DNA from: Candidatus Omnitrophota bacterium
Lineage (GTDB): Bacteria > Omnitrophota > Gorgyraeia > Gygaellales > Profunditerraquicolaceae
Assembly (NCBI GenBank): GCA_041650835.1
Contig: JBAZKL010000002.1
Coordinates: 538,435-602,434, forward strand
DNA: 64,000 nt
Reading direction: 5' to 3'
Shown: positions 10,781 to 33,100 of the stretch, in pieces
Position numbering within the stretch: position 1 is the stretch's first letter
Layout of the letters: every line of letters begins with the position of its first letter
Notes under the pieces: generated by a model
Told to the model about the DNA's origin: nothing
Seen by the model: the letters and a program-made list of their open reading frames with translations, nothing else
Databases searched by the model: none
Program-made: the position numbers and the translations under genes

Positions 10781-10816
10781 GATTTCTTCTTATATTTTCC
10801 GAGTCTTGGATTTTTA

Positions 10817-11160: not shown

Positions 11161-11176
11161 TCTACCAAGGGGGCTT

Positions 11177-13227: not shown

Positions 13228-13236
13228 TGTCGTGTT

Positions 13237-14241: not shown

Positions 14242-14250
14242 TCCACCCTC

Positions 14251-15226: not shown

Positions 15227-15624
15227 TTCTTAATATCATCAGCGCTTTCAGCTCCGTCTTTACCTAACGAATAAAGATCGTAATCCGCCCTATGGTCTCC
15301 CGGTGATTTATACTTATATTCTCTTGCCCAGGGGTCAAGAGGCTTTTTTTCCACATAAGGGCCGTGCCAGTTAGGGGCTGATGATGGCTTCGCCATTAAA
15401 GCGTTCAAACCTTCTTCAGTAGTAGGAAAACTGCCGTTATCTAATTCATAGAGCTTTAAAGCGGTAGCGATATTGGCGGATATATCCGCTTGCGCGGCGG
15501 CAGCACGCGCCTGTTCGCCTCTTCCCGTAAGCCGGGGCATGACCATAGCGACCAGCGCCCCGATAATAATAACTACCAGCATCAATTCTATTAACGTAAA
15601 AGCCCTTGTTTTCTTATTATCCAT
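15217..15624 (-). CDS. gspG: type II secretion major pseudopilin GspG
   Basis: 135 aa with the class-III signal peptide and methylation motif (RAFTLIELMLVVIIIGALVAM). It also has the GspG-specific C-terminal calcium-site motif YSLGKDGAESADD. Confidence 0.8.
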   Translation of the reverse strand: MDNKKTRAFTLIELMLVVIIIGALVAMVMPRLTGRGEQARAAAAQADISANIATALKLYELDNGSFPTTEEGLNALMAKPSSAPNWHGPYVEKKPLDPWAREYKYKSPGDHRADYDLYSLGKDGAESADDIKNWE

Positions 15625-16173: not shown

Positions 16174-17058
16174 CTAATTGTTAGACAAGTACTCCTTCCA
16201 ACGCAACTCAAATTCATCGAGGGTGCGCATCTGGGTCGGAAAGACTGAAGCTAACGCGTCCGCAAGGGACTTCCCGTCGCGCAACTGCCGGCACAACTGG
16301 GCAAAATCAAGAGCTCCGTATTTTTCAATAAGAAACCCTACTAAAGAGGCGGACTGAATATAATACGTATTTACCAAAGCTTCGCCGCTTAAAGCCAGAT
16401 TTGCCCTTTGGCCGCTTTTTGTCAAAACAGAACGGATAAAGATCTTATCCATCTGCTTAACTTTTCTGATATCCAGACGCATCATATCAGAGATAGATAA
16501 CAAGGTATCATTGGCAAATAACTTTTTAACAAGAGAACGTATCAAAGCCCGCTTCTGAACCTCTTCCCATTGCGCTACCCCTTCGTCAAGCCACAAAGGG
16601 ACTTCCCCCTTAAAACCGACAAAATCACGGAATATTAAGTGCGTTATTTCATGCGGCAGGATAGAATCAAGGAAATCCCTGCTGAAAGCGTAACTAAAGA
16701 CCGCTTTTTTCGCATAATCGGCTAAACCATGCGACCAGTCGGGATGGCCTCCCGATCTCACAAACGACTCATGGTCGGAGTAGATATAGATCTTGACGCG
16801 GTTATCCCAGGTCCAGAATTCAGAAGCCCGGGAATATCCCAGGTCAGAAGCGATCCGCCCGTAGTATCCTTCAGCTTTATCCAAAACCTTCTTGACGAAA
16901 TCATTGTCCGAGACGAAATAAACAATAAAATGCTCGCCCTTTGCTTCTTTCCAGCTTTCAGCGTAAGACCGCGTAGCTCCCCAAACACTCACCCCAAAAA
17001 AGAACAAACAGGAAAGAACGAATATCTTGTGATAAGAACGCTTTAATGACGGCATCAT
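16174..17058 (-). CDS. secreted putative zinc metallopeptidase-like protein (HEXXH motif)
   Basis: 294 aa with an N-terminal signal peptide and an HEITH motif. The sequence resembles peptidase_MA-like families. Its start abuts the stop of the histidine kinase gene. Confidence 0.45.
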   Translation of the reverse strand: MMPSLKRSYHKIFVLSCLFFFGVSVWGATRSYAESWKEAKGEHFIVYFVSDNDFVKKVLDKAEGYYGRIASDLGYSRASEFWTWDNRVKIYIYSDHESFVRSGGHPDWSHGLADYAKKAVFSYAFSRDFLDSILPHEITHLIFRDFVGFKGEVPLWLDEGVAQWEEVQKRALIRSLVKKLFANDTLLSISDMMRLDIRKVKQMDKIFIRSVLTKSGQRANLALSGEALVNTYYIQSASLVGFLIEKYGALDFAQLCRQLRDGKSLADALASVFPTQMRTLDEFELRWKEYLSNN

Positions 17059-20000
17059 TTATGTGCTTTTCGGCGCAGGCAAAGCGGGAAAAACTATCCT
17101 GAAGGTCGTCCCCTGCCCCTCTTTACTTTCAACGCTTATGGAAGCTTGATGGGCTTTAATGATATCCGCGACTATCGACAAGCCTAAACCAATGCCTTCT
17201 TCAATTTTCTTGGTCGTGAACATCGGCTCAAAGATACGCGGCAGATCGGTATCTTTTATGCCGATACCGGTATCTGAAATAGTCGCGATGACTTTATTCA
17301 TTGCCTGTTCATACTGCGTTCCCAGGCCGATGATCCCGCCGTCTCTTTGAGGTTTTTGTTCAATAGCCCATTTAGCGTTGGCGATAATATTAAAAATGAC
17401 CTGCTGCAATAAAAGGGCGTCCCCCATGATCGGCGGGACATCCTGCTGCAATTGCTTCTGAAAAGAAATATTCTTGAATTTAAATTCCTGGTTCTTGATC
17501 AGGTAAACCTTTTCAATGACCTCGTTAAGTTGCATATTCTGCAAGCTCACCCTGGTACCGGTGGAAGCGCAGCTGAACGAAGAAATGATATTCTTGCACA
17601 AAACCGCCGATTCCTCAATGAACGCTATCTGTTCTTTTAAATCGGCATAACTGAATTCTTTCTTTTGCGCGAATTTTATCTTCAAGACTTTTACGTTATT
17701 CAAAACAACGCTTAACGGATCAATGATCTGATGCGATATCCCGCTTGCTATCTGGACCAGAGACGCTCCGCCGGCAGAATTCACGCCCGGCTGAACGCCG
17801 GTATCTGCGGCAGGCGTATTTTTCAGCTGCTGCTCTTCTTTTAATTTGCGTTCTGCGGCTTCTAAAGCCGATTCCAACTGCTTTTTTTCCAGTTCTTTTT
17901 GCTCGATTATTTTTAAGGCATCCTGATGCTCCTTGACAGTAACCGTGTTTACATATCCCGCCGCTTTTTCCTGATTCAACAGGGTTAAAGCTGTTTCGAT
18001 CCTTTGCCGCTGAACTTCTTTCTGCTCGGCCATCTGGAGCGCTTCTTCCAGCTGTTTCTGCCGCTCACTCGATCGCATGACTTCCTGCTGATATTTATAT
18101 TCCAGCTCCTTAAACTTCACTTCAAATTGCTTACATTCCCCCGCTTGCTGCTCCCGCGCTTTAAACGACATCGCCTCATCCTGCGCTTTATGTTCTGAAT
18201 TTATTTTCTCCAATTCCGCGTTGTGTTTTTGCTCCATCTCCTTTAACGCCGCTTCCAGCTGCTTCCAGGCAGATTCTTTTTGTTCGATCGTTTTTAACGC
18301 CGCCTCCAGCTGCTCATGTTCCCTGCTGACTTTCAATAGTTCAGCCGCATGCTTAGCTTCTTCTTCCCGTAAAGCAGCTTCCAGCTGTTTACGGGCGGAT
18401 TCTTTTTGTTCAAGCAAGGAAAGCGTTTCTTCTAACTGCTTATGCTCAAGTTCGAGCTTCGAATACTCATCATCATAGCTGGTTTTAGCCCGCGACAACG
18501 ATTCTTCAAGCCTTCTCAACAACGCATCTTTTTCACCCAACTCCCGCGACAACGAATCCGATTTCTTATCGCTCTCTAAAGCCCTGCCTGATTCCTGAGA
18601 ACAACGTTGTTCTGCCGCTTTAAGCGCTTCAGCAAGCTGCCGTTTTTCCTGGTTAGACTTCTCTAAAACCTTTAAAGCTTCTTCAAGCTGGCTGCCGTGC
18701 GCTTGTGCTTTCGCGGATTCAAGCTTTAACGTATCCACTAATTGCTGGCGGTCGACCCTGCTTTCTTCAAGCGCCTTCAAATATTCCTGACTACGCTTAT
18801 TCTCCTCATCTGATCTTGCCGATGCTTCTATAAGCTTTTTTTCGGTCTCTTTTAAAATATGCCGAAGCTGCTCCTGCTGCCGGTCTCGATCCGCCCCATC
18901 CTTATGTTCAAAGGACGCTAAAGCTTCTTCGAGCCTTTTAAGGTCAATTTCTTTTTGCTGAATGATCTTTAAGGCACCATCATATTGTTTATTCGACCGG
19001 TCTCGCCTGGATTCCTCCTCAATCAGCTTTTGCTCAATACGTTCAAAGGCCCCCTGAAGCTCTTTACTTTCGGCGCTTTTCAGCTGCAAAGCGCGCAATG
19101 CCTCTTCGAGCTGTTTATGTCCCTCTGAAAGCTTTGCCAAAGCTTCAGCATATTTTTGCTCCGACGCATCTAACGCCTTTTCAAGAACGATACGCGCCTG
19201 TTCTTTTTCCTGAACGGCTTTTAAGGCTTCGGCACTTTGATTGGCAGCGCTTGCCGGCGCTTGAGATTCCAGGAGGCTTTTCCGGGCTAAGGTTAACGCG
19301 GCTTGAAACTCCTTTTTCTCCCGTTCTTTTTCATCAATCAGGCGCAATGCTCCATCGCGCTGCTTCCTAAGCTCAAGGGCGTGCTGGGACTCTTCGGTGT
19401 ACCTATTGCGCATTTCTTTTAAGGCATTTTCCAGGTCCCAGCACCGCTTCTTATTGTCCTCTAACTCCTGCGCTAATTCATTCAGGCGGCCCTGTTGCGT
19501 ATCAACTCCATCAGCGCAGTTGACATACGGCGAGACCGCTTTTTCCCCGAGGCGGGCGGAAATAGCAACCACGATACCGGGACTACCGTTGCCCTTGACC
19601 GATTCGATCAAAGCTTCACGTTGCCGAACGGGAATGAGCGAGTCATCTTTATTAACGCATACTGTTTCTAAGACGACCTCTTTCTTTTCCCGGAGGACTT
19701 CCTCAAATACCAGGGACATCTTCGTTAATTCTTCTTTCGGGTACAACTGCGTTAACTTCATGCGCGAGAACTGCTCTTTGAAATAACCGAAGAATTCTTC
19801 CGCTCTCTTATTAACATCGATAATATTGCCTTCTCCGTCAGTAACCACGAGCACATCGCTGGTTTCATTGAAGATCGTACTGCATTTTTTCTCGGACACA
19901 CGCAATCGTGTATCGGATTTCTTGAACTCCTTAAAAATATAAGCAAAAAAAACGGTGATAAAGATGAAAAAAAGGCGCGTTAAGAATTCCGGGGTTTTAG

Positions 20001-20145
20001 GAAGGAAAAGCTGTTGAAAGAAGCTTCCGCCCTGGAAAGCGTAATCCGCGATCGAATCGATGATCCAGAAAACAGGCCCGAGGCATAGGATTATCGCGGG
20101 GATAATATATTTAACAACCGGGAATGTTTTATTTTGATTATTCAT
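17059..20145 (-). CDS. sensor histidine kinase (2 TM helices, PAS domain, roughly 500-aa coiled coil, HisKA and HATPase_c)
   Basis: 1028 aa. Two N-terminal TM helices are followed by a PAS-like segment (VLVVTDGEGNIIDVNKRAEEFFGY). Long heptad-rich repeats of the form LEEALK..EQK come next. HisKA and HATPase_c motifs follow (...GIGLGLSIVADII...GQGTTFRIVFP). No receiver domain is present. Confidence 0.8.
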   Translation of the reverse strand: MNNQNKTFPVVKYIIPAIILCLGPVFWIIDSIADYAFQGGSFFQQLFLPKTPEFLTRLFFIFITVFFAYIFKEFKKSDTRLRVSEKKCSTIFNETSDVLVVTDGEGNIIDVNKRAEEFFGYFKEQFSRMKLTQLYPKEELTKMSLVFEEVLREKKEVVLETVCVNKDDSLIPVRQREALIESVKGNGSPGIVVAISARLGEKAVSPYVNCADGVDTQQGRLNELAQELEDNKKRCWDLENALKEMRNRYTEESQHALELRKQRDGALRLIDEKEREKKEFQAALTLARKSLLESQAPASAANQSAEALKAVQEKEQARIVLEKALDASEQKYAEALAKLSEGHKQLEEALRALQLKSAESKELQGAFERIEQKLIEEESRRDRSNKQYDGALKIIQQKEIDLKRLEEALASFEHKDGADRDRQQEQLRHILKETEKKLIEASARSDEENKRSQEYLKALEESRVDRQQLVDTLKLESAKAQAHGSQLEEALKVLEKSNQEKRQLAEALKAAEQRCSQESGRALESDKKSDSLSRELGEKDALLRRLEESLSRAKTSYDDEYSKLELEHKQLEETLSLLEQKESARKQLEAALREEEAKHAAELLKVSREHEQLEAALKTIEQKESAWKQLEAALKEMEQKHNAELEKINSEHKAQDEAMSFKAREQQAGECKQFEVKFKELEYKYQQEVMRSSERQKQLEEALQMAEQKEVQRQRIETALTLLNQEKAAGYVNTVTVKEHQDALKIIEQKELEKKQLESALEAAERKLKEEQQLKNTPAADTGVQPGVNSAGGASLVQIASGISHQIIDPLSVVLNNVKVLKIKFAQKKEFSYADLKEQIAFIEESAVLCKNIISSFSCASTGTRVSLQNMQLNEVIEKVYLIKNQEFKFKNISFQKQLQQDVPPIMGDALLLQQVIFNIIANAKWAIEQKPQRDGGIIGLGTQYEQAMNKVIATISDTGIGIKDTDLPRIFEPMFTTKKIEEGIGLGLSIVADIIKAHQASISVESKEGQGTTFRIVFPALPAPKST

Positions 20146-20230: not shown

Positions 20231-21448
20231 CTAATGAGCCATGACATTGATCTCAAATATCGGCAAAAGCATGGCGATAACAATAAAACCGACGATAAGG
20301 CCCATGCCCAGTATCATTAAAGGCTCCAAAAGACTGCTCATGACCTTGATCGCCTCATCGGTATCCCGCTCATATGAAGAGGCGACTTCCGATAATGCTT
20401 CATCTAATTTCCCTGATTCTTCCCCCACAATAAGCAAATTGGTCATGAAAAGCGGAAAAAGCGAGGCATTTTTCAAGCTCCTGCCAAAAGAACCTCCCTG
20501 CTCCAGGTCTTTGTAACTCGTACGCAATTTCCCTTTTATCACTTCATTCTCTAATATCGGGATACCGACCTCAAGCGCCTTTAAAATAGGGATCCCGCTC
20601 TTGATCAACAGTTCCAGCGTCCGGCAGAAACGCGAAAGTTCAGCCTTAAGGATGAATTTACCGAATACCGGGACATGAAGCTTAAAGACGCTTAAAAAAG
20701 ACCTGCCGGCGGTTGATTTTAATTGCTTAGCTGCGACGAAGATTACCGCGACCAGGACCAGGAGTATCCAAACGCCCCAGTGCCGCAAACCTTCACTGAC
20801 ACTTATAAGTATCCTCGTCGGAAGAGGCAATTTCTGGTCTATATTGTTATAAATATTAAGCAGCCGGGGCATGACAAACGTAAGCATAAAAATGATCGTG
20901 CCGACACCGACCATCGCCATAAGCATGGGATACGCCATCGCCATCCGGAAACGCGCGAACATCTCTTCTTGTTTGGAACGGTATTCGGAAATCCGCAGCA
21001 GCATCTCAGGCAAAGAACCGCTGTCTTCTCCGACACGGACCATCGCGATATAAATAGGAGGAAAAATCCGAGGATATTGCATCAAGGTCGCGGAAAAAGT
21101 TGAGCCTTCTTTAACCGCGTCATGGATATTCCTGACCATGGCTTTCAGGGAGGAATTCTCCGATTGTTCAGAAATGATATTAAGGGCGGCGAGAATTGGT
21201 ACCCCTGCTTTAAGGAGGCTGGCTAATTGGCGGCTTATAATAGTGATTTCCGCGGAACGGACATTACCGGTAAACCTGTTGAAAGAGGTTGTTTCACGGG
21301 CAGCAGAAACGCCGCATTCCTCTATATGGACGGGAATGTAGCCCAAAGCGCTGATCCTTTCAATAGCTTCTTTTTCAGAACGGCCCTCAATCCTGCCTTC
21401 AACAATATTCTGAGGGTCTTTTTTAGCGCGATACGAATATACAGGCAT
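20231..21448 (-). CDS. gspF: type II secretion / type IV pilus platform protein GspF/PilC
   Basis: 405 aa with two paralogous GspF-type cytoplasmic domains and three TM segments. It lies downstream of the gspE-like gene. Confidence 0.85.
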   Translation of the reverse strand: MPVYSYRAKKDPQNIVEGRIEGRSEKEAIERISALGYIPVHIEECGVSAARETTSFNRFTGNVRSAEITIISRQLASLLKAGVPILAALNIISEQSENSSLKAMVRNIHDAVKEGSTFSATLMQYPRIFPPIYIAMVRVGEDSGSLPEMLLRISEYRSKQEEMFARFRMAMAYPMLMAMVGVGTIIFMLTFVMPRLLNIYNNIDQKLPLPTRILISVSEGLRHWGVWILLVLVAVIFVAAKQLKSTAGRSFLSVFKLHVPVFGKFILKAELSRFCRTLELLIKSGIPILKALEVGIPILENEVIKGKLRTSYKDLEQGGSFGRSLKNASLFPLFMTNLLIVGEESGKLDEALSEVASSYERDTDEAIKVMSSLLEPLMILGMGLIVGFIVIAMLLPIFEINVMAH

Positions 21449-21498: not shown

Positions 21499-23646
21499 TT
21501 ATTTACTTTCTTGTTCTATATACTTATCTAAGCGGACTCTCTGGGCGCCGGTCATATCAAGAAAGCAAATTGCGACATTATAAACTTTTTCAGTTTCAGT
21601 TTCCTGGCTGCGGACAACCTTAGCTAAGCATTCAATGGGGCTATCATTGTCCGGCAATTCTATCGTTAACTCTAAATACGCCCGGGGAGGTATCATTTCT
21701 ATCGAAGTAAACGTCAATCCCCCGGCAGAAATATTAGACGTAACGCTCAACTGTTCGACCGTATACCCCTGATTAATTAATTCTTCCTGTGATTTAAAGA
21801 TCTTATACCGCAGGTTAACCCGGCTGTTCAAACGGCTAAACACCCGTTTATCGGCATCGGAGGGTTTAGACATTTCTCTGCGCAAAGAATCCCCCCCATA
21901 AGCATCCTGCAACCCTTCCTGCGGCTGGAAATATTCCTCGGCAGAAGTGACATTCATAACTTCTTCGGGTGTCGTCAAACCCAGGATGGTCTTTTGCCAG
22001 CCATCCTGGCGTAACGTTCGCATGCCTCGCGAAACAGCGAATTTCTTGATCTGTCCCGCTGAAGACTTATTCAAGATAAGGTCTTTGACCGTATCATCGA
22101 TCAATAAGATCTCGTAAATGGCCGTCCTTCCCAGGAAACCGGTAAAATTACAGTTCGCGCATCCTCTGCCGCGGAATACCCGCACTTCATCCTTTGATTT
22201 TAATGCTAAATCCCGGATAATGGTTTCACTTAATTCTTCAGGAATATCCATTTGCTCATACTTACAATCAGGGCAGATCAGGCGTATTAAACGCTGCGCA
22301 ATAAAGGCTTCGACGCTTGAAGCGACCAGATAAGGCTCCAAGCCGATATCCACTAAACGGGTAATACCGCTGGCAGCGTCATTGGTATGCAGCGTCGAAA
22401 ATACCAGATGGCCGGTAAGCGCGACACGGATGGCGATCTCAGCTGTCTCCAGGTCCCTGACCTCTCCCACCATGATCACATCGGGATCGTGGCGTAAAAT
22501 ACTCCGCAAGCCCCGGGCAAAATCCAACCCTATCTCGGACATGACCTGTATCTGAGTGACTCCTGACATCTCATACTCGATCGGGTCTTCTATAGTAATG
22601 ATCTTGCGTTCCCGCGTATTGATCCTGCTTAAACTGGCATATAACGAAGTGGTCTTCCCGCTCCCTGTCGGGCCGGTCACAAAAATAATACCGTGCGGTT
22701 TACGGATCAAACCTTCAAATATATTCAGGTCGCGCTTTGACAGACCCAATTTCTCAAGGCTGAACAACATCTGAGTAGGCAAGATACGCACGACCACGCT
22801 CTCCCCGAAAGGCGTAGGTATCGTCGATATCCTCAAGTCTAAAACCTGTTCCTGGACTTTAACCACTGCCCTGCCGTCCTGGGGCATACGGCGTTCAACG
22901 ATATTAAGGTTCGACATGATCTTAATACGCGAGATGATCGCTGTGATAAAACCTTTTATTTCCGGGCCGACATTCGCGTCATAAAGCAAGCCGTCAATAC
23001 GGTAACGAAGCACCACCCCGTCCCGATATGGCTCAATATGGATATCGGTGGCCCGTTTACGCCATCCTTCAAGTATGATCTGATTGACTAATTTGATGAT
23101 CGAGGCGTCTTCGGCTAATTTCGCGATATCAACGACTTTTTCGTTGGAAGGTTCCTGAGGAGAGGATTCATCTTTGGAAATCTGAGAAACGATCCTGTCC
23201 AGGGTTTCCGCGGCCAGACCGTAATATTCTTTTAACGCGCTGACAATATCCGAGGACAACGCAAGGGCAGTCTCGATCTCGAAACCCAGCTGCATACTTA
23301 TCTCATCCTGGATCTTAATGTCGAGCGGCATTGAAACGGCTATGGTCAAACAACGGTCTTTCAAATCAAGCGGCATGAATTTATAATACGAGGCGATCTT
23401 CACCGGTACCGCGGCGATCACGGCCTTATCGATCAAACGGCCTTTAAAATCAATAAGGCGCAGCTGCAGGTTTTCCGAGAGGATCTGTAAAATCGTTTTC
23501 TCGGGGACCGCGGCATGCTTGAGCAGGACATTCCAGAGAGGAAGAGACATACCTTCGGCTTCTTTGATCAGAGGCTCTAAAGATTCTCTCGAGGCGATCT
23601 TACGGACGATCAACGCTTCAAAAAGTATCGTATCAAGTTTAGTCAT
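21499..23646 (-). CDS. gspE: GspE/PilB-family secretion ATPase with C-terminal PilZ domain
   Basis: 715 aa with a T2SSE_N-like N-terminus, Walker A GPTGSGKTT and the tetracysteine cluster CPDC...CANC. A C-terminal extension of about 150 aa carries the PilZ signatures RLNSR and NISAGG. Confidence 0.85.
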   Translation of the reverse strand: MTKLDTILFEALIVRKIASRESLEPLIKEAEGMSLPLWNVLLKHAAVPEKTILQILSENLQLRLIDFKGRLIDKAVIAAVPVKIASYYKFMPLDLKDRCLTIAVSMPLDIKIQDEISMQLGFEIETALALSSDIVSALKEYYGLAAETLDRIVSQISKDESSPQEPSNEKVVDIAKLAEDASIIKLVNQIILEGWRKRATDIHIEPYRDGVVLRYRIDGLLYDANVGPEIKGFITAIISRIKIMSNLNIVERRMPQDGRAVVKVQEQVLDLRISTIPTPFGESVVVRILPTQMLFSLEKLGLSKRDLNIFEGLIRKPHGIIFVTGPTGSGKTTSLYASLSRINTRERKIITIEDPIEYEMSGVTQIQVMSEIGLDFARGLRSILRHDPDVIMVGEVRDLETAEIAIRVALTGHLVFSTLHTNDAASGITRLVDIGLEPYLVASSVEAFIAQRLIRLICPDCKYEQMDIPEELSETIIRDLALKSKDEVRVFRGRGCANCNFTGFLGRTAIYEILLIDDTVKDLILNKSSAGQIKKFAVSRGMRTLRQDGWQKTILGLTTPEEVMNVTSAEEYFQPQEGLQDAYGGDSLRREMSKPSDADKRVFSRLNSRVNLRYKIFKSQEELINQGYTVEQLSVTSNISAGGLTFTSIEMIPPRAYLELTIELPDNDSPIECLAKVVRSQETETEKVYNVAICFLDMTGAQRVRLDKYIEQESK

Positions 23647-23688: not shown

Positions 23689-24174
23689 TTACTGCTGCGG
23701 TTTATCTTTTCTCAAGAGGCGCTGAATACTCTGGCTGATGTGCTGCCGGTAATTCTTGATCACTTCCTGCAGGTCCTCTTCATTCGTCAACACTAAGTTC
23801 ACCTTGCGGGGGCGCGCTTCCTCTTCTACCTTACTGATAGCAACGGCATTAAGCGGATTAATGATCGCGACCGTAATTGAATCCTCATCCCCGTAGAGCG
23901 GAAAGCATTTATGGTCAAGGATCAGCGACGAGGAGAATTTACGCGCCAATTCCATATCAATATATTGCGTCTTTAAATTAGCGACCGGGATCTGGAATTG
24001 AACGGAGAGAGCCTCCATCAGGTTGTGGTCGTTGATCAACCCTTTATTGATCAAGATCGTGCCCAAAAATTTATCGCTGAGCTTCTGTTCAACTAACGCG
24101 TCATGCAACTGAGCTTCCGTGATCCACCCCTTTTCTACGAGTATTTCACCTATTCTTTTAGGCATTTTTTCCAT
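23689..24174 (-). CDS. standalone GspE N-terminal (T2SSE_N-like) domain protein
   Basis: 161 aa resembling the N1 domain of GspE and MshE ATPases (GWITEAQLHDALVEQK...). It lies 12 nt downstream of the atpD stop. Confidence 0.55.
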   Translation of the reverse strand: MEKMPKRIGEILVEKGWITEAQLHDALVEQKLSDKFLGTILINKGLINDHNLMEALSVQFQIPVANLKTQYIDMELARKFSSSLILDHKCFPLYGDEDSITVAIINPLNAVAISKVEEEARPRKVNLVLTNEEDLQEVIKNYRQHISQSIQRLLRKDKPQQ

Positions 24175-24186: not shown

Positions 24187-25578
24187 TTATACTGTTCCAA
24201 TCATATATAAATCACCTTCCGGCTTGCGGTCGAGGTGCCCGGACAGAATTTTTTCACAGCCTTCAACCGTCTGCGCTATGGTGACAAACTCTCCCTTTTT
24301 ACCCGTATACGCTTCGGCGACAAAGAACGGTTGCGTGAGGAAATATTGCAGCTTACGCGCCCGTTCATAGATGATACGGTCGCCGGCAGAAAGCTCGTCA
24401 ATACCGATGACCATGACGATACGCCTGAGCTCTTCGTAACGCTGCAGCATACGGATGACGTCCTGAGAGACCTGGTAATGGCGCTTACCGACGATATCAG
24501 GGTCAAGATTCGCGCAGCTAGACATAAGCGGATCGATCGCCGGATACAAACCTAACTGGATCCTTTGCCGGGAAAGGACCATGATAGAATCCAGGAAGCT
24601 GAAGATCGTCACAACCGCCGGGTCGGTCAAATCGTCGGCGGGGATATAAACCGCTTCTACCGAAGTAATAGAACTTCCCGTTTCATGGGAAGACTTGATC
24701 CTCTCGTGGAACTCACTCGCCTCGGAGATCAGGGTAGGCTGATACCCTGTTTCAGAAGGAAGCCTGCCCAGCAAACTTGAAATTTCCGCCCCTGCCTGGA
24801 GGAAACGAAAGATATTATCCACGAACAACAAAACATCCTGGTGCTTACGCTGGATCGATTCTGCCAGGGTAGCCCCGCTAAAAGCCACGCCAAAACGGGC
24901 CCCCGGGGGCTCATTCATCTGGCCGAATATCAAGACGGTCTTCGATAAAATATTCCTGCGCTCCAATTCATAATACAGCTCATTTCCCTCACGCATACGC
25001 TCACCTGCGCCCACGAAAACGCAGGCACCGCTGTGTTTGCGGACAATATTATGGATGATCTCAAGGGTCAGGATACTTTTTCCCAACGCCGCACCTCCCA
25101 GGATCCCGTTCTTAGAACCTTTCACGAGCGGAAAAAGCAGGTCTATGATCTTAATACCTGTCTCTAAAACTTCGAATTTCTCGGCTTTTTCTTTGCTCGA
25201 AAAAGACTGTGCTGCCCGTTGAGGCCTGATCGGCAGCCGCTCACCGGGAGCGATTTCACCTTTCTGGTCGATCGGGTCACCCCAAATATTAATGATCCTG
25301 CCGTAAATGCTATCTCCCGCGGGGATCTGTATCGGGGTTCCGGTAGGGATAACGACACTATTACGTTGCAGGTTAAAGGTGGAATTAATAGCAATACACC
25401 GGGCAATGTTACCGGCGACATGTTCAGCGACCTCTAAGACTACCCTTTTACCGTCAACCGTCTGCGTGTTGATATTATCAAATATCGCGGGGATATCCTC
25501 TTCCCGCTCAAATTTGACATCAACGACCGGCCCCTGTACTGAGATTACACGACCTGGTTTGAGATGAGTATTGTCCAT
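24187..25578 (-). CDS. atpD: F-type ATPase beta subunit
   Basis: 463 aa with the beta-barrel N-domain and the blocks GERMREGNELY, MNEPPGAR and DELS. The P-loop reads GGAALGKS instead of the usual GGAGVGKT. Confidence 0.9.
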   Translation of the reverse strand: MDNTHLKPGRVISVQGPVVDVKFEREEDIPAIFDNINTQTVDGKRVVLEVAEHVAGNIARCIAINSTFNLQRNSVVIPTGTPIQIPAGDSIYGRIINIWGDPIDQKGEIAPGERLPIRPQRAAQSFSSKEKAEKFEVLETGIKIIDLLFPLVKGSKNGILGGAALGKSILTLEIIHNIVRKHSGACVFVGAGERMREGNELYYELERRNILSKTVLIFGQMNEPPGARFGVAFSGATLAESIQRKHQDVLLFVDNIFRFLQAGAEISSLLGRLPSETGYQPTLISEASEFHERIKSSHETGSSITSVEAVYIPADDLTDPAVVTIFSFLDSIMVLSRQRIQLGLYPAIDPLMSSCANLDPDIVGKRHYQVSQDVIRMLQRYEELRRIVMVIGIDELSAGDRIIYERARKLQYFLTQPFFVAEAYTGKKGEFVTIAQTVEGCEKILSGHLDRKPEGDLYMIGTV

Positions 25579-25693
25579 AGTCTTAATTAACCGTTATGTT
25601 ACACCCCGCCTTTTTGGAGTGGCGGAGTACGCCGCTTTCTGCCCAGAAAGGGCGCACCCAGCATACCTATAAGCTGGGGTGCTTGCGGCACCT

Positions 25694-26542
25694 CTATTTA
25701 AATGCCAACCGCGCCGCGAATAACTCCCGCATATTCTTATCGATCAATTCATGGCGCTGACGGAAATATTGTATTTTTAATTCCTTATTCAACTGCTCGA
25801 TCTTTGTCTTACTGGTCTCTAAATGGCTATAGCGCGCTGAAAGTTCAGCTAAACGCGATATGCCGAAGATCTGGAAGAATTTCTGGCCCAGGAATAAATA
25901 CATCCAATATTCCAGCAAGCCGTCAAGCGGAGATTCAACAATTAAATCCTTCACTCCCCCTGAAGCCGTTTTTCTCTGGAACTGATCGGCTTTAGAAAAA
26001 GGGAAAAGCTGCAAAACCTTGACCTGCTGGGCAACGATCGAAAGGGAATAGGGATACACGACCTTCAGTTCTCCCAATTTACCGCTTTGCTCCTCATTTA
26101 AAACATAATCCCTCAACTCGAGGGCCTGTTCCAGCCTGGTCTCGTCTTTTACTCCCTTAAAAACAACATAGGGAAGGTCCGTTTCAGAGGCGTAAATCTT
26201 CCCCTTTTCTCCGACGATAAGAAGCTTGGAATTGTTTTTCTCCGCTTCTTTGATCGCCTGGGTCATCACATTCATATTCAAACCGCCCAAGAGGCCCGCG
26301 TCAGAAGTAAGCGCGATCACTCCCGGCTGGCGGCTGCTCGATTCCAGCAAGTGGTGTTTAATGCCGCCTGCCTGCAGCAGCTCAAAGATACTTCCCAGAT
26401 GGCTGAACACTGAATCAAAGGTCTTGAGTTTACGTTCAAGCACCCGGTATTGAGCTATGGCGATCTCTTTTAAAACCTCAACGAGGCTATAGAGGTTGAG
26501 GTTAAAATCCATATCTTTCTTGATCTGAGAAAGTAATTTCAT
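25694..26542 (-). CDS. atpG: F-type ATPase gamma subunit
   Basis: 282 aa with gamma-like N- and C-terminal helices (...ELIDKNMRELFAARLAFK). It sits between the alpha and beta genes. Confidence 0.75.
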   Translation of the reverse strand: MKLLSQIKKDMDFNLNLYSLVEVLKEIAIAQYRVLERKLKTFDSVFSHLGSIFELLQAGGIKHHLLESSSRQPGVIALTSDAGLLGGLNMNVMTQAIKEAEKNNSKLLIVGEKGKIYASETDLPYVVFKGVKDETRLEQALELRDYVLNEEQSGKLGELKVVYPYSLSIVAQQVKVLQLFPFSKADQFQRKTASGGVKDLIVESPLDGLLEYWMYLFLGQKFFQIFGISRLAELSARYSHLETSKTKIEQLNKELKIQYFRQRHELIDKNMRELFAARLAFK

Positions 26543-26545
26543 ACG

Positions 26546-28027
26546 TTACACAACCGCGAAATAATGGTTCATTGCTTCGTATAACATTTCTATACTGGCA
26601 TCATTGATGATCATCGTCGTACGGATCTCTTTAAAAAGATTCGGGAACTCTTTTTCCACCAGTCCGACAAATTCGTTCTTAAACTTCTGGATATCGGCAG
26701 GGGATAAAGTATCCAGCACCCCCATGCTTAAAGCGAATAAGAACATGACTTCCGACTCCATCTCGATCGGCTTATTCTTATCCTGGATCAAAAGCTGGGT
26801 GATCGCCTGGCCCCGCTTCATACGGTCTTCGGCTTCCTTGGAAAGGCCGGTCGTGCGCAGCTGCGTCATCTGCAGCAATTCCTGATACTGGATATATTCA
26901 AGTCTCAACTGGCCGCTCAACGCTTTCATTGCCGGCCACTGCGCTTTATTGCCGATACGGGAAACCGAAAGGCCGAAATCGATCGCCGGACGAACGCCTT
27001 TGTTAAAAAGCTGAGTGCTGAAGTAGATCTGCCCGTCAGTCATAGAGATCAAATTACTGGAAATATATCCCGTAACATCACCCTGCAATATCTCAACGAT
27101 CGGCAAAAACGTCATTGAACCGCCGCCGAGCTCCGGCTTTAAGTATCCGGCGCGTTCCATCATCTGGGAATGGATATAAAAAATGTCTCCCGGGTACGCT
27201 TCTCTTCCCGGGGCGCGCTCCAGTAAAAGCGAGATCTGACGGTATACCCAGGCATGCTTCGTCAGGTCATCGTGGATCAAAAGGACGTCTTTACCTTTTT
27301 TCATGAAATATTCGCCTAACATGCACGCGGTATAGGGAGCTAAATACTGCTCGCCCATAGAAACAGAAGCGACAGCGCTCACCACAATAGTATACGGCAT
27401 TACTTCTTTTTCATTAAAAAGGTTTAAAAGCTTAAGAAGGCTGGAATTAGTCTTTCCGATACAACAATAAATACAAATAACATCCTGTTTCTTCTGATTG
27501 ATGATCGCGTCAATAGCGACAGTCGTCTTACCCGTAAGACGGTCTCCGATCAAAAGCTGCCGCTGGCCTTTGGCGATCGGGATAACCGCGTCCAAGAGCA
27601 ATGTCCCGGTTTCCAGTGTTTCTTTAACGGGGGCGCGGTCCATAACACCGGGAGCATCGGTAAAAAGAGGATAGTACGCCGACGGTTCAATAGGGCCTTC
27701 ATTATCAACAGGCTCGCACAAGCTATTGACGATCCTGCCGATAAATTTATCCCCTACCGGCAAATGCAAGAACTCCCCCTTACTTAATACTTTCCCGCCG
27801 ATATGCAAAGACCCCTTAACATCAATTACTAATACCTGGACCTCTGCTTCATTAAAACCCAAAACCATGCCCCGCCCGCCCTGTTCAAACTCCACGATCT
27901 GCCCGTTAATGCAGGAAGGAAGGCCTTTTACCCGCACCACGCATTCACGCACCGATACGATCACACCTATTTCGCGCGCTTCAAAATTCGCCTCAGCATG
28001 ATTTTCATGCATACCATCCACCTTCAA
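26546..28027 (-). CDS. atpA: F-type ATPase alpha subunit
   Basis: 493 aa with the alpha P-loop GDRLTGKTTVAIDAIINQK and conserved alpha C-terminal blocks. Confidence 0.92.
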   Translation of the reverse strand: MKVDGMHENHAEANFEAREIGVIVSVRECVVRVKGLPSCINGQIVEFEQGGRGMVLGFNEAEVQVLVIDVKGSLHIGGKVLSKGEFLHLPVGDKFIGRIVNSLCEPVDNEGPIEPSAYYPLFTDAPGVMDRAPVKETLETGTLLLDAVIPIAKGQRQLLIGDRLTGKTTVAIDAIINQKKQDVICIYCCIGKTNSSLLKLLNLFNEKEVMPYTIVVSAVASVSMGEQYLAPYTACMLGEYFMKKGKDVLLIHDDLTKHAWVYRQISLLLERAPGREAYPGDIFYIHSQMMERAGYLKPELGGGSMTFLPIVEILQGDVTGYISSNLISMTDGQIYFSTQLFNKGVRPAIDFGLSVSRIGNKAQWPAMKALSGQLRLEYIQYQELLQMTQLRTTGLSKEAEDRMKRGQAITQLLIQDKNKPIEMESEVMFLFALSMGVLDTLSPADIQKFKNEFVGLVEKEFPNLFKEIRTTMIINDASIEMLYEAMNHYFAVV

Positions 28028-28030
28028 TTC

Positions 28031-28768
28031 CTATTGCGCTTTTGATAATTGATGCGCTTTTACCGCTTCCTGGATCTTAAAGCGCAGGCTCCCGTCAAGC
28101 ACCAAGCTGCCGATACTGACTACCCAGCCGGCAATAATATTAGGGTCTGTAGATTCTTTTAACGTGATCGGGAAACCGACTTTTTCATTGATCTTACCCG
28201 ACAAAGCCGTTCGCTGCGCGTCGGTAAGGAGGAACGCCGTTACCACCCCTGCTTCCTGTATGCCCTCAGGAATATGCAACCGGTCCAATTGCGCGAAGTT
28301 ACCCGCGATCAATTCATCGATCCAGCGTTCATGGATCATGGTGCGGATATTTTCAGGGATTACTTCCTGCAACAATTGCGCTGCCCGATGAATCCCCTTA
28401 TCTTCTATACGCTGTTCGATCTCAGCGATCAAAGCATTACGGGCACGATCAGCCTGAAGCATCATTTCATCAGCTTTTACCTGGGCCTCTTTAATGATCT
28501 TTTCTTTCTCCTCCTGCATTTCCTTTAATAAACGCTGCTTCTGCTGTTCGGCGTCTTTCATTGCAAGTTCTTTAATTTCCTGGGCTTCACGCTTAATATC
28601 GTCATATTGCTTTTTTATATCCTGTTCTTTCTTGGCATATTCAGCGGCCATCTGGTCCAGATGAGCGGTTGCCGCGCCGACGTCACGGTTAAAGATCTTG
28701 TTCAAGGAAACCACTAAAACAATGAAAACAATAATAATGAGGACTATGAAAGGGATCAGTATAAGCAT
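28031..28768 (-). CDS. atpFH: F-type ATPase b–delta fusion subunit
   Basis: An N-terminal TM helix and charged coiled coil (AEYAKKEQDIKKQYDDIKREAQEIKE...) resemble subunit b. The C-terminus is OSCP/delta-like (...IIAGWVVSIGSLVLDGSLRFKIQE). The called ORF extends to 28891 from a TTG codon and overlaps atpE. The internal ATG at about 28768 (MLILIPFIV...) is the more plausible start. Confidence 0.65.
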   Translation of the reverse strand: MLILIPFIVLIIIVFIVLVVSLNKIFNRDVGAATAHLDQMAAEYAKKEQDIKKQYDDIKREAQEIKELAMKDAEQQKQRLLKEMQEEKEKIIKEAQVKADEMMLQADRARNALIAEIEQRIEDKGIHRAAQLLQEVIPENIRTMIHERWIDELIAGNFAQLDRLHIPEGIQEAGVVTAFLLTDAQRTALSGKINEKVGFPITLKESTDPNIIAGWVVSIGSLVLDGSLRFKIQEAVKAHQLSKAQ

Positions 28769-28835
28769 TTCTTTAAACTCCTTTATTACCGGAGGACACT
28801 GGCGGTATGAATAATACCGGCAAACTCCGTAACAC

Positions 28836-29048
28836 TTAACTGAATAACTGGAAAGCGACAAACAGGGCGATGATCGCCGCCCCTTCGGCAAATGCGGTCA
28901 GCATGATCATGACGATAAAGATCTTCGGCGCGGCCGACGGGTTCCTTCCTAACGCGGCGATACTGGCTTTTCCGCAGGAGGCAAAGACCCAACAGGGGCC
29001 CGCGATACAAAACGTAAAGATCAAAAGCAACGCTAAATTTCTATCCAT
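28836..29048 (-). CDS. atpE: F-type ATPase c subunit
   Basis: 70 aa forming a two-helix hairpin. It has a GK...GRNP loop and a helix-2 carboxylate in the context LTAFAEGAAI. Confidence 0.7.
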   Translation of the reverse strand: MDRNLALLLIFTFCIAGPCWVFASCGKASIAALGRNPSAAPKIFIVMIMLTAFAEGAAIIALFVAFQLFS

Positions 29049-29049
29049 G

Positions 29050-29277
29050 TTATTCTTCCATGATGATCGTGGTCTTATTCGATTGAACGCCTACCATGCC
29101 CCGACGGATAGCGAATACATTCTGGTCCACGATAACGTTTCCTTTAACCAAACGGCTCACCAAAGGCTTGTGATAATCTAAAACTTCAAAAACCCCCTGT
29201 TCTCCGGGAAGCATAACACTATGAGCCTTACCTTCGAAGACTATTTTATCGAGCGTAACAACGATAACATCCTGCAT
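29050..29277 (-). CDS. atpC: F-type ATPase epsilon subunit, N-terminal beta-sandwich only
   Basis: 75 aa (MQDVIVVTLDKIVFEGKAHSVMLPGEQGVFEVLDYHKPLV...). The sequence matches the epsilon N-domain. The C-terminal helical hairpin is absent. Confidence 0.7.
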   Translation of the reverse strand: MQDVIVVTLDKIVFEGKAHSVMLPGEQGVFEVLDYHKPLVSRLVKGNVIVDQNVFAIRRGMVGVQSNKTTIIMEE

Positions 29278-29345
29278 GCGTTTATATTATAGCATTAAAG
29301 AGGTTACACACTAATAATTATACAATCGCTTAATAATTATACCAT
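29278..29345 (-). promoter_or_regulatory. candidate promoter of the ATPase–T2SS operon (extended −10 TGcTATAAT 7–15 nt upstream of the atpC ATG; possible leaderless mRNA)
   Basis: The minus-sense sequence reads ...GTGTGTAACCTCTTTAATGCTATAATATAAACGC-ATG. No Shine-Dalgarno sequence is present. Two further TATAAT hexamers lie upstream. Confidence 0.3.
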
Positions 29346-30132
29346 TGTTTTAGGTTATTGAAAATGTTATTTTGTCGCAGGCACAAGACACAAGTCGCAG
29401 GTCTCAGGTCGCTTGCTATCCGGTGAACGGGTCCTGTCTTGGACTATTTTCTCGCGGGGACGTTTGCCCCGCCCCGGCGTGGCGGGGCTGCACTCAGGTC
29501 GGCTGCGTCGCTCTGCCCGACTTCGTTTATCGAGGGGCATCCGTGCCCGCTCCTTGCCTTTATGCCCCGCTCGAAAACAGTCCAAGCCACCCGTTCACTA
29601 ATAAAAACCCTGGTCAGACACAAGTCATAAAATAATCTATAGTCGATGGTCAATAGAGAAGGAAAATCAGAGTAACCGGGAATCGGGTCGCAGGTCTCAG
29701 GTCGCAAGACACAAGTACACAAGACACAGGTAATCCGGAACTATATGATCAGGTAATCAGGAAATTGAAAAAGAAAGATAATCGAGTAAGAATGCCCCTG
29801 TTGAGATTGTGAGCGAATGGAGCTTTTAGCCGGAGGAGCTTGAGCATTTGAGGGAATGCCAGTGGAGCGCGTAAGCGCGACAACACTGGCAAGGCGAGGT
29901 TGTCTGAGCAGTATTTGCCAGAGCAAATACTGCGAGTTCCGCAGCCTCCGAAAATGCGAAAGATCTCCGGCGTTACCCGGATTAGCCTTTTCTAAAACAA
30001 AAGGCTAATCCGGGTAAAAAAGCGACTTGAGCGAACAATCCAACAGGGGCATTCTTGGTAAGCTCAAAATAACAGGTCGCATGGCACAATTACACAAGAC
30101 GCAAGTCACAACGAAGATAACAGCCAACAGTT

Positions 30133-30182
30133 AAATAAAAAACGCGGGACCACTCCGGGAAATTACCGGAACGGCCCCGCGC
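30133..30182 (-). terminator. intrinsic terminator of the giant gene
   Basis: On the minus strand a GC hairpin (GCGCGGGGCCGTTCCGGTAATTTCCCGGAGTGGTCCCGCG) is followed by UUUUUUAUUU. It begins about 15 nt after the stop codon at 30197. Confidence 0.65.
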
Positions 30183-30196
30183 TTATTACTTTAGAT

Positions 30197-33100
30197 CTAT
30201 TTCTTCACACCCGCGTCCGGTTTTGATTCCGGCTTTTTACCGGGAAACGCATCATTCTTGGCACTATCGATCACGCTCTGTCCTGAGCGGATCTGCCCCT
30301 GCCATACGAAGAAAAAGATACCTGCCAACAATCCCAGAAAAACGATCACCACCATGATAATAAGCCAGGTCGTGGTCTTGGTAGGCATATTAAGCTTCAA
30401 TTTACTTTTTTCCAAAAGCTCAGGGGTATTCGGCCCCAATTCCGGCGCAAGCAGCTTTTCCAGATCATCCAGCTTCTTCTGGATCAGCTTCATCATCTCC
30501 AGATTCTGGCGATAATAACCGATATGCCGCTCTCTGCTGACCGTCTCATCTATTTGCGTCTTAGAGATCTCATCGAGCACCGGATAAATCGTATCGGTTA
30601 CCTCTTTTACCTGCGCGTAACTATCGCTCTTTTCAAACTTGGCAAGGAGCGAATCGGTATGCTTCTTAATGTCCGCCAGTGCCGCATCTGGAACAAGCCA
30701 GATATCTTCGACTTCGACCTCAAAGACACGGGCTTCTCCAGGCTTTAATTCCACATCCTCCTTGCTATAGACGAAATAAATGGATTTCTCGGCGTCAAAT
30801 TCAAGTTCCAATCCGCCCAGGTCCATCACATCTTTAGGTTTGACCTCCTCCGGCAGGTATTTCTTTACCTGTACCTTCTGCATCCTTGTCTTTGAAGGGT
30901 TAACGATCATGATCCGGAACTTAACGCTGCCTGACTGCATGGACGAGGAAATGATCGGTGAATCAACACCGCCCAGCTTCGATTCAAGGATCTGTAAGAG
31001 CATATCCACGATCGAATTGATGGTATCGGTCTTATTCCTCATATCTTTGATGGTCGAGGTATCTCCCAGCTTTTCATCCAACAACGCTCCGAGGTCAATA
31101 CCCTGATCACCCATTAACAGCTTAAGTTTTTCGGATATATCGTTAACTGCCTTGGCGAGAGTACTTTCCGATCCGCCGCCCTCTTTTATCATCTGCGGAA
31201 GTTCATCCATTGATTCCTTGAGGTTCTGCAAGGTCATGGAAATATTGATATTATCATTGGAACCAAGGACGGCTTGCACAGCCTGAATGGCATCCAAAGC
31301 CTTCTTCGCGGCGCGTTCGGCTTCAGGGGCCGCGGCTGCAAGGCCGGCAACGGTGGTAATACCCATACTTTCTACCATGCCCGAACCTGAAACAAGGCCG
31401 CCGGTCACCTGTTCGCTGACAATATATGTATACGCCTTACCAACATCAAATCGCGAATCGGCCGTAATATTATAGGTATAAAATCCCAACCGGGATTCTA
31501 CCAAAATCGCGTTTTCGACTATCGCTTCATTATCCCAGGTATAAATACTCAACATCGGCACTAAACTCGGCTGGCCCTGGACCTGGATATTAATAATATC
31601 TCCGGTCAAAGCAGGGTTCGGAGAAGCACTTGCCTTCCAGGAGTATCTCTTGGCTGTTGTCTGTAATTCCTGGCCGGCTTCGACTGCCGTGTCGGCGCCT
31701 GACTGCAACTTGGTGATCGCTTCATTGGTCTGCGTCTCAAAGCTGGTCAAAGAAGTTTCAAGCATACCCACCATACCGCCTGCGGCAATAACTTCTTCTT
31801 TCGTCCTCGTCGGGCCGACGATAATGCCGGTCTGTTCATCCATCTTGGTATCAATGGATGCCTTCTGTTCATCCATCTTGGTAGTGATCAAATTCGAAAC
31901 AGAAGTCTGGAATGAAGGCAGCGTCGTATCCTTCATCTCATTGACCGCCGCTTCCGTACTTTCCAAACGCATGGATTCCGTGACACTAAAGGATGTCGGT
32001 GTCCTAAAATGAGCGCCGGACGCGTTACGCAGGTCAACAAGGGCGGCATACACAACACCTGCCTGTAAATTGGTAGGCGCGTTCCAGATCAGGTTAAAGT
32101 ACCCGCCGGCACCCGCACCTTCCTCATTCAACGTCTGGATCAACACCTGATCCTGGTCATAGATATAAATATCGACGCCCTGCACACCGGTAACGATGCT
32201 GCCGTCTCTTTCCAACCAGGAAGTCGCGCGTAAGATATCATTTGTAGCGTCATAGGTGAATTCAGCCTCAGCGCGCCAGATATGCACCGCGGTAGTTTCC
32301 AGGTACATCGTGAAAGCCTGATCGCTGTCGGCGGTATAATTCAAACCCTTGTCGCCATAGCCTGAGGCAGACCAGGTTGTCGTCCAGAAGCCATACGGTG
32401 TCGCATGGGTCACCGCAGACGTCATCCCGACAGCCTGCCAGCCTACAGTCTCGGTCCCGGTAAGCTTTTCCACAACCGAGAGATTGGTCAACTGCTCATT
32501 CGTCAAGAGGTCGCGGATCGTCCAGGTAATGGTATAGTAATCGATCCTAAAAACAGCCGCTGATGAATGATAAATAGTCTCATCATTGACATCCATGACC
32601 CGGACTTTGACTGTTGATGAACGGTCATCAGGCACAACCCAATTGTAAGAATTAAGATTCGGTGTCGAGGCAGTGATCACCGTCTGGGTCGCGAAATCAT
32701 CTTTTGAGTAGACTAATTTCACATTCGGGATACTTCCGCGATTGGTCCAGGTGATCGCATGAGTCTCATTGGTGATCCAGCGTTCCCCACCCACAGGGGC
32801 AGTCAGGTTAAATTCACCCCGGATCTTAAAATCAGCATTCGAGCTGTCGGCAACCGTATCATCGCCGGGATCCTCAACTCTCACCCGCACTGTCTGTGAA
32901 AGCGTATCAGGCACTGTCCAGCTGTATGAATATGGCCCGCCCGCGCCGGCTCCGTTAGATGCCGCGGCATTGATCAAATTAGGATACGTTACCCCTGAAT
33001 CAAGCGAGTAGCTCAACTTGACCGCGGGCATTGTTCCGCCCCAGGTCCAGGTAATATTATGCGCATCCCCCGCTATCCAAGCCTCACCGCCATTAGGCGC

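Follow-up and report, generated by a model that had tools for sequence, protein, structure and literature searches.

The locus described here raises the question of what an F-type ATPase can do when no gene for subunit a accompanies it and when its genes stand inside an operon for type II secretion. The window, by which we mean the whole stretch of DNA that was analysed, comprises 64,000 nucleotides from a Candidatus Omnitrophota bacterium (assembly GCA_041650835.1, contig JBAZKL010000002.1, positions 538,435 to 602,434 of the forward strand). On its minus strand, between positions 24187 and 29277, it carries genes for the ATPase subunits epsilon, c, a fusion of b and delta, alpha, gamma and beta, in this order, and these are followed by genes of a type II secretion system (T2SS). 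Judged from a comparison with related loci, the family to which this gene set belongs appears to be an active ATPase whose c-ring need not carry ions. We think it reasonably probable that the complex is a non-chemiosmotic rotary motor that hydrolyses ATP and does mechanical work for the adjoining machinery.

Loci and sequence data

The window locus was compared with 94 distinct Omnitrophota loci, in which six-frame open reading frames (ORFs) were annotated using the window proteins. These loci were collected from three sources: contigs encoding two beta homologues, a scan of species-representative genomes by gamma alignment (20 loci) and a scan of metagenome contigs (80 loci). The loci from the genome collection belong to Omnitrophota metagenome-assembled genomes (MAGs). 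Among the best 120 beta homologues, which are 71-90% identical, all those with an organism name are from Omnitrophota except one mislabelled MAG. Four public MAGs that have an Omnitrophota-type locus (L005, L011, L021 and L022) are labelled Planctomycetales, Planctomycetia or Deltaproteobacteria; these labels are probably the result of mis-binning or mis-classification.

The window proteins were scanned against Pfam. Subunit c was aligned for 52 distinct homologues and the beta motifs for 21, and a neighbour-joining tree was calculated on alpha and beta together, with E. coli as the root. Counts of gene order use informative loci only: a minimum of 3 kb beyond beta was required for GspE and of 1.5 kb before epsilon for the long ORF that precedes it, and enough upstream sequence for c and epsilon.

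The ion-carrying site of subunit c

Subunit c (28836-29048, minus strand) is a hairpin of 70 amino acids that matches ATP-synt_C (PF00137, E 4.4e-8). Its loop reads R35-N-P37, and E55 occupies the position of D61 in E. coli; the spacing from P37 to E55 is 18 residues, the same as that from P43 to D61 in E. coli. In the family, R35 and P37 are invariant in all 52 homologues, and conservation reaches at least 90% over roughly a third of the hairpin. The column of E55 behaves differently: it contains Q in 28 sequences, E in 22, L in one and F in one, so that 30 of the 52 have no carboxylate there. The E, Q, L and F states are interspersed on the alpha and beta tree, where at least seven changes are needed to account for them.

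Where the only c gene encodes Q, L or F at this position, the ring contains no group there that could be protonated, and the ring is therefore retained for something other than carrying ions. This is the most forceful argument for a family that does without subunit a, since the carboxylate is useful only alongside subunit a and is dispensable in the family.

Other features of the hairpin also depart from the usual pattern. In the first transmembrane (TM) helix, which is about five residues shorter than that of E. coli, the GxGxGxG motif that normally serves for packing is missing; P..VF is conserved in this helix, and many lineages have two or three cysteines there. The two ends of the protein, M[DS][RK]N at the N-terminus and FQLF at the C-terminus, are also conserved, and by analogy with other F-type c subunits both would lie on the periplasmic side.

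Search for subunit a

In agreement with the sequence-only reading, which had reported no atpB in the window and nothing a-like among the ORFs near c and epsilon, no window ORF of at least 120 amino acids matches ATP-synt_A (PF00119) in Pfam, and the E. coli AtpB probe finds no match among ORFs from all six frames of the window and of 24 loci. An E. coli AtpI probe gives no credible match either. Note that probing with E. coli AtpB and AtpI is weak, because E. coli c itself barely detects the window c (E 0.29).

In a hydropathy scan of the first 24 loci, GspF is the only polytopic ORF; the exceptions are three ORFs in L014 and L023 that are unrelated or antisense. Within about 6-10 kb of the family loci there is neither an a-like gene nor any polytopic ORF besides GspF, and the intergenic gaps within the ATPase cluster are small and contain no credible ORF. 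Two places that might have held such a gene were inspected individually. The 1-kb gap between c and b-delta in L101 contains only junk ORFs, and the ORF of 277 amino acids between the giant gene (see below) and epsilon in L003 (5472-6305) is a stand-alone copy of the C-terminal TM module of the giant protein.

Head, rotor and stalk

Pfam matches bear out the gene order given in the sequence-only reading and the two peculiarities that it had noted in epsilon and beta, namely an epsilon of 75 amino acids without the C-terminal inhibitory helices and a beta P-loop of the form GGAALGKS among otherwise intact catalytic blocks. Epsilon (29050-29277, minus strand) matches ATP-synt_DE_N (PF02823, E 1.4e-13); this beta-sandwich is its sole Pfam domain, which is the reason for concluding that the inhibitory helices are missing, and the protein is about 75-77 amino acids long in all family members. 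In beta (24187-25578, minus strand, 463 amino acids), the motifs GERMREGN, LLFVDNIFRF (Walker B) and DELS and the adenine-stacking Tyr are all present. The P-loop of the family is GGA[AG]LGKS, and the P-loop Lys, the catalytic Glu and Arg, the Walker B Asp, the Tyr and DELS are invariant in the 21 homologues.

Alpha (26546-28027, minus strand) has 493 amino acids when read from a TTG codon, with an alternative ATG start at 28012. It contains the P-loop GDRLTGKT and the arginine finger, both of which are invariant across the aligned family loci. Since the catalytic residues of alpha and beta are all conserved, the gene set is read as encoding a family of active ATPases, as far as this can be told from sequence.

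Only alpha and beta pass the strict NCBIfam models: alpha scores 538 against a cut-off of 484 for the atpA equivalog and beta 566 against 463 for the atpD equivalog, and their identities to the E. coli counterparts are 42% and 49%. The models for gamma, epsilon, c, b and delta all remain under their cut-offs, for example epsilon with 47 against 67. Gamma (25694-26542, minus strand, 282 amino acids) is a divergent member of PF00231 (E 1.9e-32); it scores 81 against 194 and is 22% identical to E. coli gamma.

The third protein had been described as a fusion of b and delta. The fusion is confirmed, because the family of this ORF is detected with E. coli b (E 1.6e-7) as well as with E. coli delta (E 1e-10), but its delta part consists of the C-terminal domain only. 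The ORF extends over 28031-28891 on the minus strand, and the start codon is probably the ATG at 28768, 41 codons into it, which gives a protein of 245 amino acids (28031-28768); the 65 homologues are all about 240 amino acids long. The Pfam match covers positions 95-167 of the 172 of OSCP, that is, the C-terminal half. An AlphaFold2 model built from 49 sequences (mean predicted local distance difference test score, pLDDT, 87.5) contains a continuous helix from residue 4 to 136, made up of a TM segment and a b-like part, then a short helix, and then an alpha/beta domain at 172-244. Foldseek superposes this last domain on the C-terminal domain of delta/OSCP with a root-mean-square deviation of 1.1-1.2 Å, whereas the best match to the whole chain is the stalk subunit E of V-ATPases (TM-score 0.44-0.52).

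Alignment, model and Foldseek search thus agree that the N-terminal domain of delta is missing. In ordinary enzymes this domain grips the N-termini of alpha, and in the alignment the N-terminus of the present alpha is about eight residues shorter than that of E. coli and is unconserved in the family. Among the hits listed, b-delta is only 36-46% identical in relatives in which beta stays at 71-90%. In L060 (metagenome contig C687J26845_10005266), two neighbouring ORFs with 12 nt between them take the place of a single b-delta gene, which is a frameshift or a sequencing error.

A block conserved across Omnitrophota

The sequence-only reading had also proposed that related genomes be checked for the same linkage between ATPase and T2SS genes. 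The linkage is found there: GspE follows beta in 45 of the 46 informative loci, with varying flanks. The full order is a giant ORF, then epsilon, c, b-delta, alpha, gamma and beta, then an optional MshEN gene, GspE with PilZ, GspF, Peptidase_MA, pseudopilins, GspK and PilMN, and it is essentially invariant among the 94 loci. Subunit c precedes b-delta in 47/47 informative loci, and epsilon is in its place in 46/47. In 38 of 39 loci, epsilon is preceded at a distance of 0-930 nt by the end of a long ORF on the same strand, which runs off the fetched sequence; in many lineages this gap is 3-20 nt. On the other side, the median gap from beta to MshEN is 12 nt, and from zero to two copies of MshEN stand between beta and GspE.

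The genes outside the block vary by locus, being S15/PNPase, a histidine kinase or nusG/rpoBC. The block therefore appears to travel as a unit. The sole exception is the complete chromosome CP070807.1 (L023), in which c, b-delta, alpha, gamma and beta (7483-12255) occur without epsilon and without an adjacent T2SS. This set is flanked by an AhpC/thioredoxin-like gene and by a MoxR-type AAA gene on the opposite strand, and part of its c is masked by N.

The giant gene and the spacer before epsilon

In the window, the gene that precedes epsilon extends over 30197-54775 on the minus strand and, according to its ORF and Pfam matches, encodes a surface protein of 8192 amino acids with a signal-like segment at the N-terminus and immunoglobulin-like (Kre9_KNH) repeats. 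Its last 270 amino acids or so (about 30197-31010) form a conserved module that consists of one TM helix and a tail. In 42 of 43 distinct loci, the ORF before epsilon ends in such a terminal helix (…TW[LIV][IV]I…F.GLLAG…FF.W..Q) and a tail of about 30-45 residues (AK.[SA]AFP). The tail, about 35 amino acids in the window, is presumably cytoplasmic and is a plausible docking site for cytoplasmic machinery. In L003 the TM module is a separate gene, the one of 277 amino acids considered above.

The sequence-only reading had proposed one transcription unit for the ATPase and T2SS genes, behind a promoter region at 29.3 kb. The giant gene is followed directly by a strong terminator-like hairpin of 19 pairs, 12 of them G-C, and a T run (30140-30184, minus strand). 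About 60 nt upstream of the epsilon ATG, at 29336-29364 on the minus strand, the sequence TTTTCA-17-TATAAT, which includes the TG of an extended -10 element, resembles a promoter by its match to the consensus (10 of 12 positions). Terminator matches inside the run of atp and gsp genes are not above chance. The promoter-like site, the tight spacing and the lack of internal terminators thus fit a single unit that begins around 29.35 kb, at the level of sequence patterns.

The spacer between the giant gene and epsilon (29278-30196) is 919 nt long in the window, as against 293 nt in the close relative L006. It can be set aside as coding or RNA sequence, since it contains no ORF of useful size and matches no Rfam family. 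It does contain repeats, namely a perfect 19-nt hairpin (29973-30017), a perfect 16-nt inverted pair (29788-29803 and 30041-30056) separated by 237 nt, and short direct repeats in two exact copies, GTCGCAGGTCTCAGGTCGC. Relative to close relatives, the region 29365-30139 looks like a small inserted element resembling a miniature inverted-repeat transposable element. Directly upstream of the giant gene, 54780-56442 contains an ORF of 155 amino acids without a family and a protein of 397 amino acids with an IS200-like Y1 transposase domain.

T2SS genes and window surroundings

Downstream of the ATPase genes, the succession previously described is confirmed: beta ends 12 nt before a standalone gene similar to the N-domain of GspE, which is followed by gspE-PilZ and gspF, all on the minus strand. 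The standalone gene (23689-24174, 161 amino acids) matches MshEN in Pfam, has both motifs for binding cyclic di-GMP (c-di-GMP), and scores 66 in the NCBIfam c-di-GMP_motif model against a cut-off of 38. The secretion ATPase of the GspE/PilB type (21499-23646) matches T2SSE (E 1.5e-126), MshEN and a C-terminal PilZ. Because the MshEN protein passes the c-di-GMP-motif model and GspE carries PilZ, the T2SS or pilus apparatus is probably under c-di-GMP control. In some loci the standalone MshEN gene is duplicated in tandem (L007, 12269-13280; L009, L029 and L030), and in others it is missing (L016, L017, L020, L072, L078 and L086).

The platform protein GspF/PilC (20231-21448) matches T2SSF (E 1.9e-60). 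The next gene (17059-20145) encodes a protein of 1028 amino acids that resembles a sensor kinase, with PAS, a very long coiled coil and HATPase_c and without a HisKA match in Pfam; it lies between GspF and Peptidase_MA in the window, L006, L010, L014, L015 and L053, and is missing from most other loci. The Peptidase_MA_2 protein (16174-17058), identified by Pfam and synteny, is a member of the conserved block. The remaining T2SS genes, also on the minus strand (11177-15624), encode GspG (15217-15624, T2SSG), an N-methyl pseudopilin (14831-15226, N_methyl), a GspJ-like protein (14251-14892, T2SSJ), GspK (13237-14241, T2SSK), a PilM-PilN fusion equivalent to GspL (11749-13227, Pfam) and a GspM/PilO-like protein (11177-11767, a weak T2SSM match).

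The window thus contains the core of a T2SS, consisting of GspE, GspF, GspG, the minor pseudopilins, GspL and GspM. GspD and GspC are not part of this set, no Secretin match being found in Pfam among the window ORFs scanned; the secretin and GspC may be encoded elsewhere. Past the T2SS genes come tRNA-Thr and tRNA-Trp (10817-10889 and 10517-10589) and then nusG, rplKAJL and rpoBC. Two promoter-like sites (TTGACA…TATACT, 11 of 12 matches) at 11038-11145, after the last T2SS gene and before tRNA-Thr, tRNA-Trp and nusG, probably mark the end of the T2SS unit.

Comparison with known systems

The locus belongs to a family that has already been reported, and it is therefore not new as a discovery. 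Seymour et al. 2023 (Nat Microbiol, PMC10066038), in the parts of that paper drawn on here, describe a non-respiratory 'symbiotic' F-type ATPase (sF-ATP) with divergent alpha and beta in Omnitrophota. It occurs in 56/111 species of Velamenicoccia and has representatives in all classes of Omnitrophota, with V. archaeovorus LiM among its carriers, and in 57/66 contigs it lies within 10 kb of genes for a type IVa pilus or a T2SS. It is labelled 'type 2/3', and the role proposed for it is attachment or motility on hosts. Since the window locus likewise combines an Omnitrophota host with alpha and beta within 10 kb of pilus/T2SS genes, we regard the two as the same entity, and the linkage of the ATPase to pilus and T2SS genes is already published in that paper. 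The same passages of its main text and supplement, as distinct from the present analysis, deal with the phylogeny of alpha and beta and with the co-location; they contain nothing on the missing subunit a, the c-ring, the E/Q/L/F site, b-delta with its C-terminal domain, the short epsilon or the giant ORF. As measured against these passages, what is new here is the subunit anatomy, the dispensable carrier residue of c, and the giant gene, ATPase and T2SS as one block.

Surveys based on KEGG orthology (KO) agree with the present reading. In the part of the source data of PMC10066038 drawn on here, the KO list of one genome has alpha and beta and no KOs for a, b, c, delta, gamma and epsilon. Among complete Omnitrophota genomes, alpha and beta were recorded in 125/176 and gamma in 30/176, and V/A-type ATPases are common (bioRxiv 10.64898/2026.06.07.730766). 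For atpB at the scale of whole genomes, the published data consulted offer KO lists of this sort, which bear on it indirectly. Because only alpha and beta pass strict cut-offs, surveys of this kind catch these two and miss the other subunits. West-Roberts et al. 2023 describe a different neighbourhood around giant genes, with the ATPase unmentioned.

Among rotary ATPases, the canonical F1Fo enzyme shares with the Omnitrophota set alpha, beta, gamma, the N-domain of epsilon, a c hairpin with an R-(N/Q)-P loop, a b-like helix, the C-domain of delta and the catalytic residues. The Omnitrophota set differs in having no nearby a, no delta N-domain and no epsilon C-terminal helices, in its unconserved c carboxylate, in its gene order within a T2SS operon, and in its single b-like helix. 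On the alpha and beta tree the family forms a long branch relative to E. coli, the sole outside reference. The N-ATPase (Dibrova et al. 2010, PMC2881411) is also an atypical second set of F-type genes, arranged in an unusual order (atpD-C-Q-R-B-E-F-A-G), but it keeps a, adds AtpQ and AtpR, is without delta and pumps Na+. The window set contains no genes for a, AtpQ or AtpR, and its scores in the alt_F1F0 models for alpha, beta, gamma and B are 489/750, 499/752, 38/282 and 42/225 (score/cut-off).

The closest functional parallel is found in Mycoplasma, in which the type 2 (G1, gliding) and type 3 (F1-like X0, MIB-MIP) ATPases power surface machinery (PMC12994834). Like the window set, these have an F1-derived motor of alpha-, beta-, gamma- and epsilon-like subunits and no subunit a, and the machinery of M. 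mobile includes very large membrane-anchored surface proteins, in which it resembles the system with the Omnitrophota giant protein. Their clusters, however, comprise seven genes, including those for 12-TM, small cytoplasmic and 2-TM proteins, and have no homologues of b, c and delta (PMC12994834), whereas the Omnitrophota set has a canonical c and b-delta and no 12-TM protein. A specific kinship is not supported by scores from hidden Markov models and from a PDB search: the window alpha and beta fail the corresponding NCBIfam cut-offs (415/600, 402/850, 304/520 and 388/570) and pass those for F0F1. In the PDB search, G1-beta of M. mobile obtains 330 bits, as compared with 413-487 bits for every canonical F1 beta listed. 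The Mycoplasma analogy is thus functional, not familial.

A further parallel is the FliH-FliI-FliJ system, in which an F1-related ATPase is held to a secretion machine by a b/delta-like tether. That ATPase is a homo-hexamer without a c-ring, and the FliI/SctN models give 140-181 bits for the window proteins against cut-offs of about 600.

Possible roles of the complex

The sequence-only reading had left two explanations side by side, namely that atpB is encoded elsewhere or that the F1-c-ring assembly has been co-opted. The second is favoured by the 30 of 52 c sequences in which Q, L or F replaces the carrier carboxylate, by the invariant catalytic residues and by the T2SS adjacency in 45 of 46 loci. 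With no subunit a and a fixed block between the giant gene and the T2SS, the complex most likely burns ATP for mechanical work. As we picture it, an F1 head (alpha3beta3) would sit on an intact rotor of gamma, the short epsilon and the c-ring, and would be tethered to the inner membrane through a single-pass stalk made of b and the delta C-domain. Lacking subunit a, the complex would have no ion path; ATP hydrolysis would rotate the membrane-embedded c-ring, or put torque on it, against the head held by the stalk, and no ions would flow. The recipient of the work would be the c-di-GMP-controlled pseudopilus platform, the giant tail-anchored protein or the two together, and the pseudopilus apparatus and the giant protein probably act in attaching to host or prey cells or in attacking them. 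We infer hydrolysis rather than ATP synthesis, and our choice of mechanical target is a guess. The most specific form of the proposal is a true ATP-driven motor whose ring drives the GspF/GspL platform or the C-terminal anchor of the giant protein, that is, a new rotary-powered envelope machine in a diderm; in this form we consider it unlikely.

Several observations count against a motor without ion flow. The c of the window itself keeps the carboxylate E55, as do all members of its subclade, which is nested among Q lineages. Alpha and beta are above the NCBI F0F1 equivalog cut-offs. A subunit a that had diverged as far as c has would escape the probe queries used, and its absence was seen directly only in the 64-kb window and in about 6-10 kb around the 94 loci, from which we infer its absence from the whole genome. 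Absences of the KofamScan type add weak evidence here, because divergent c, gamma and epsilon are missed as well. Finally, the L023 exception means that physical linkage of the ATPase to the T2SS is not obligatory.

Some of these points would suit an ordinary, if divergent, ion-coupled F1Fo synthase or pump, with a and perhaps a second b encoded elsewhere and the T2SS adjacency as inherited synteny. Split atp operons are common in bacteria, which agrees with this explanation, as do the F0F1 scores of alpha and beta, the intact catalytic residues and the correct spacing of the window carboxylate (18 residues from P37 to E55). Nevertheless, 30 of the 52 sequences have Q, L or F as the carrier residue, with repeated switches between E and Q, which is intolerable for an ion-coupled ring; moreover, neither the delta N-domain nor the epsilon C-domain is present, the block holds together while its flanks change, and Omnitrophota commonly have V/A-type ATPases for chemiosmosis. 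We therefore regard a conventional synthase as decidedly unlikely. The same carrier site bears on the idea that GspF or the TM helix of the giant protein stands in for a as a replacement stator, the ring being ion-driven or ion-driving in a new way. The block conserves no polytopic protein other than GspF, and a passage of PMC10790770 describes PulF as an ion channel; yet rings with Q, L or F have no titratable group at the carrier site, and by inspection the residue there does not covary with the TM and tail sequence of the giant protein, which leaves a replacement stator very improbable.

Two further explanations do without ring rotation as the output. The complex might be a secretion or unfolding ATPase like FliH-FliI-FliJ that feeds or extracts the giant protein or the pseudopilins. 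The proposed architecture of FliH is a b-like helix fused to a delta-like C-domain, and b-delta resembles it; in addition, the ATPase lies within a secretion-system operon, immediately downstream of the gene for the conserved C-terminal TM helix and tail of the giant protein. An unfoldase, however, would have no need of a distinct alpha/beta hetero-hexamer with a strongly conserved gamma, epsilon and c-ring rotor, and with the FliI/SctN models far under their cut-offs, this seems to us quite unlikely. The losses of subunit a, the delta N-domain and the epsilon C-domain might also be taken as signs of a decaying, functionless remnant of an atp operon. Six genes that are intact in nearly every locus, with invariant catalytic residues and a beta that is 71-90% identical among the hits listed even where b-delta has fallen to 36-46%, make such decay barely credible.

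Implications

If the complex is indeed an ATP-hydrolysing mechanical motor, Omnitrophota would have made an ATP synthase into such a motor by a route unlike that of the mycoplasmas, keeping the c-ring and the stalk, discarding the ion channel and letting the ion-binding residue drift. The genes of this motor would be wired into a c-di-GMP-regulated secretion or pilus operon beside the gene of a giant adhesin. For bioenergetics, the family would provide a natural test of how a c-ring functions without subunit a, and for predatory or parasitic nanobacteria it would provide a candidate machine with three conserved parts and defined candidates for the contacts between them. In that case, annotations of an 'F0F1 ATP synthase' in Omnitrophota should not be counted as evidence for chemiosmotic ATP synthesis.

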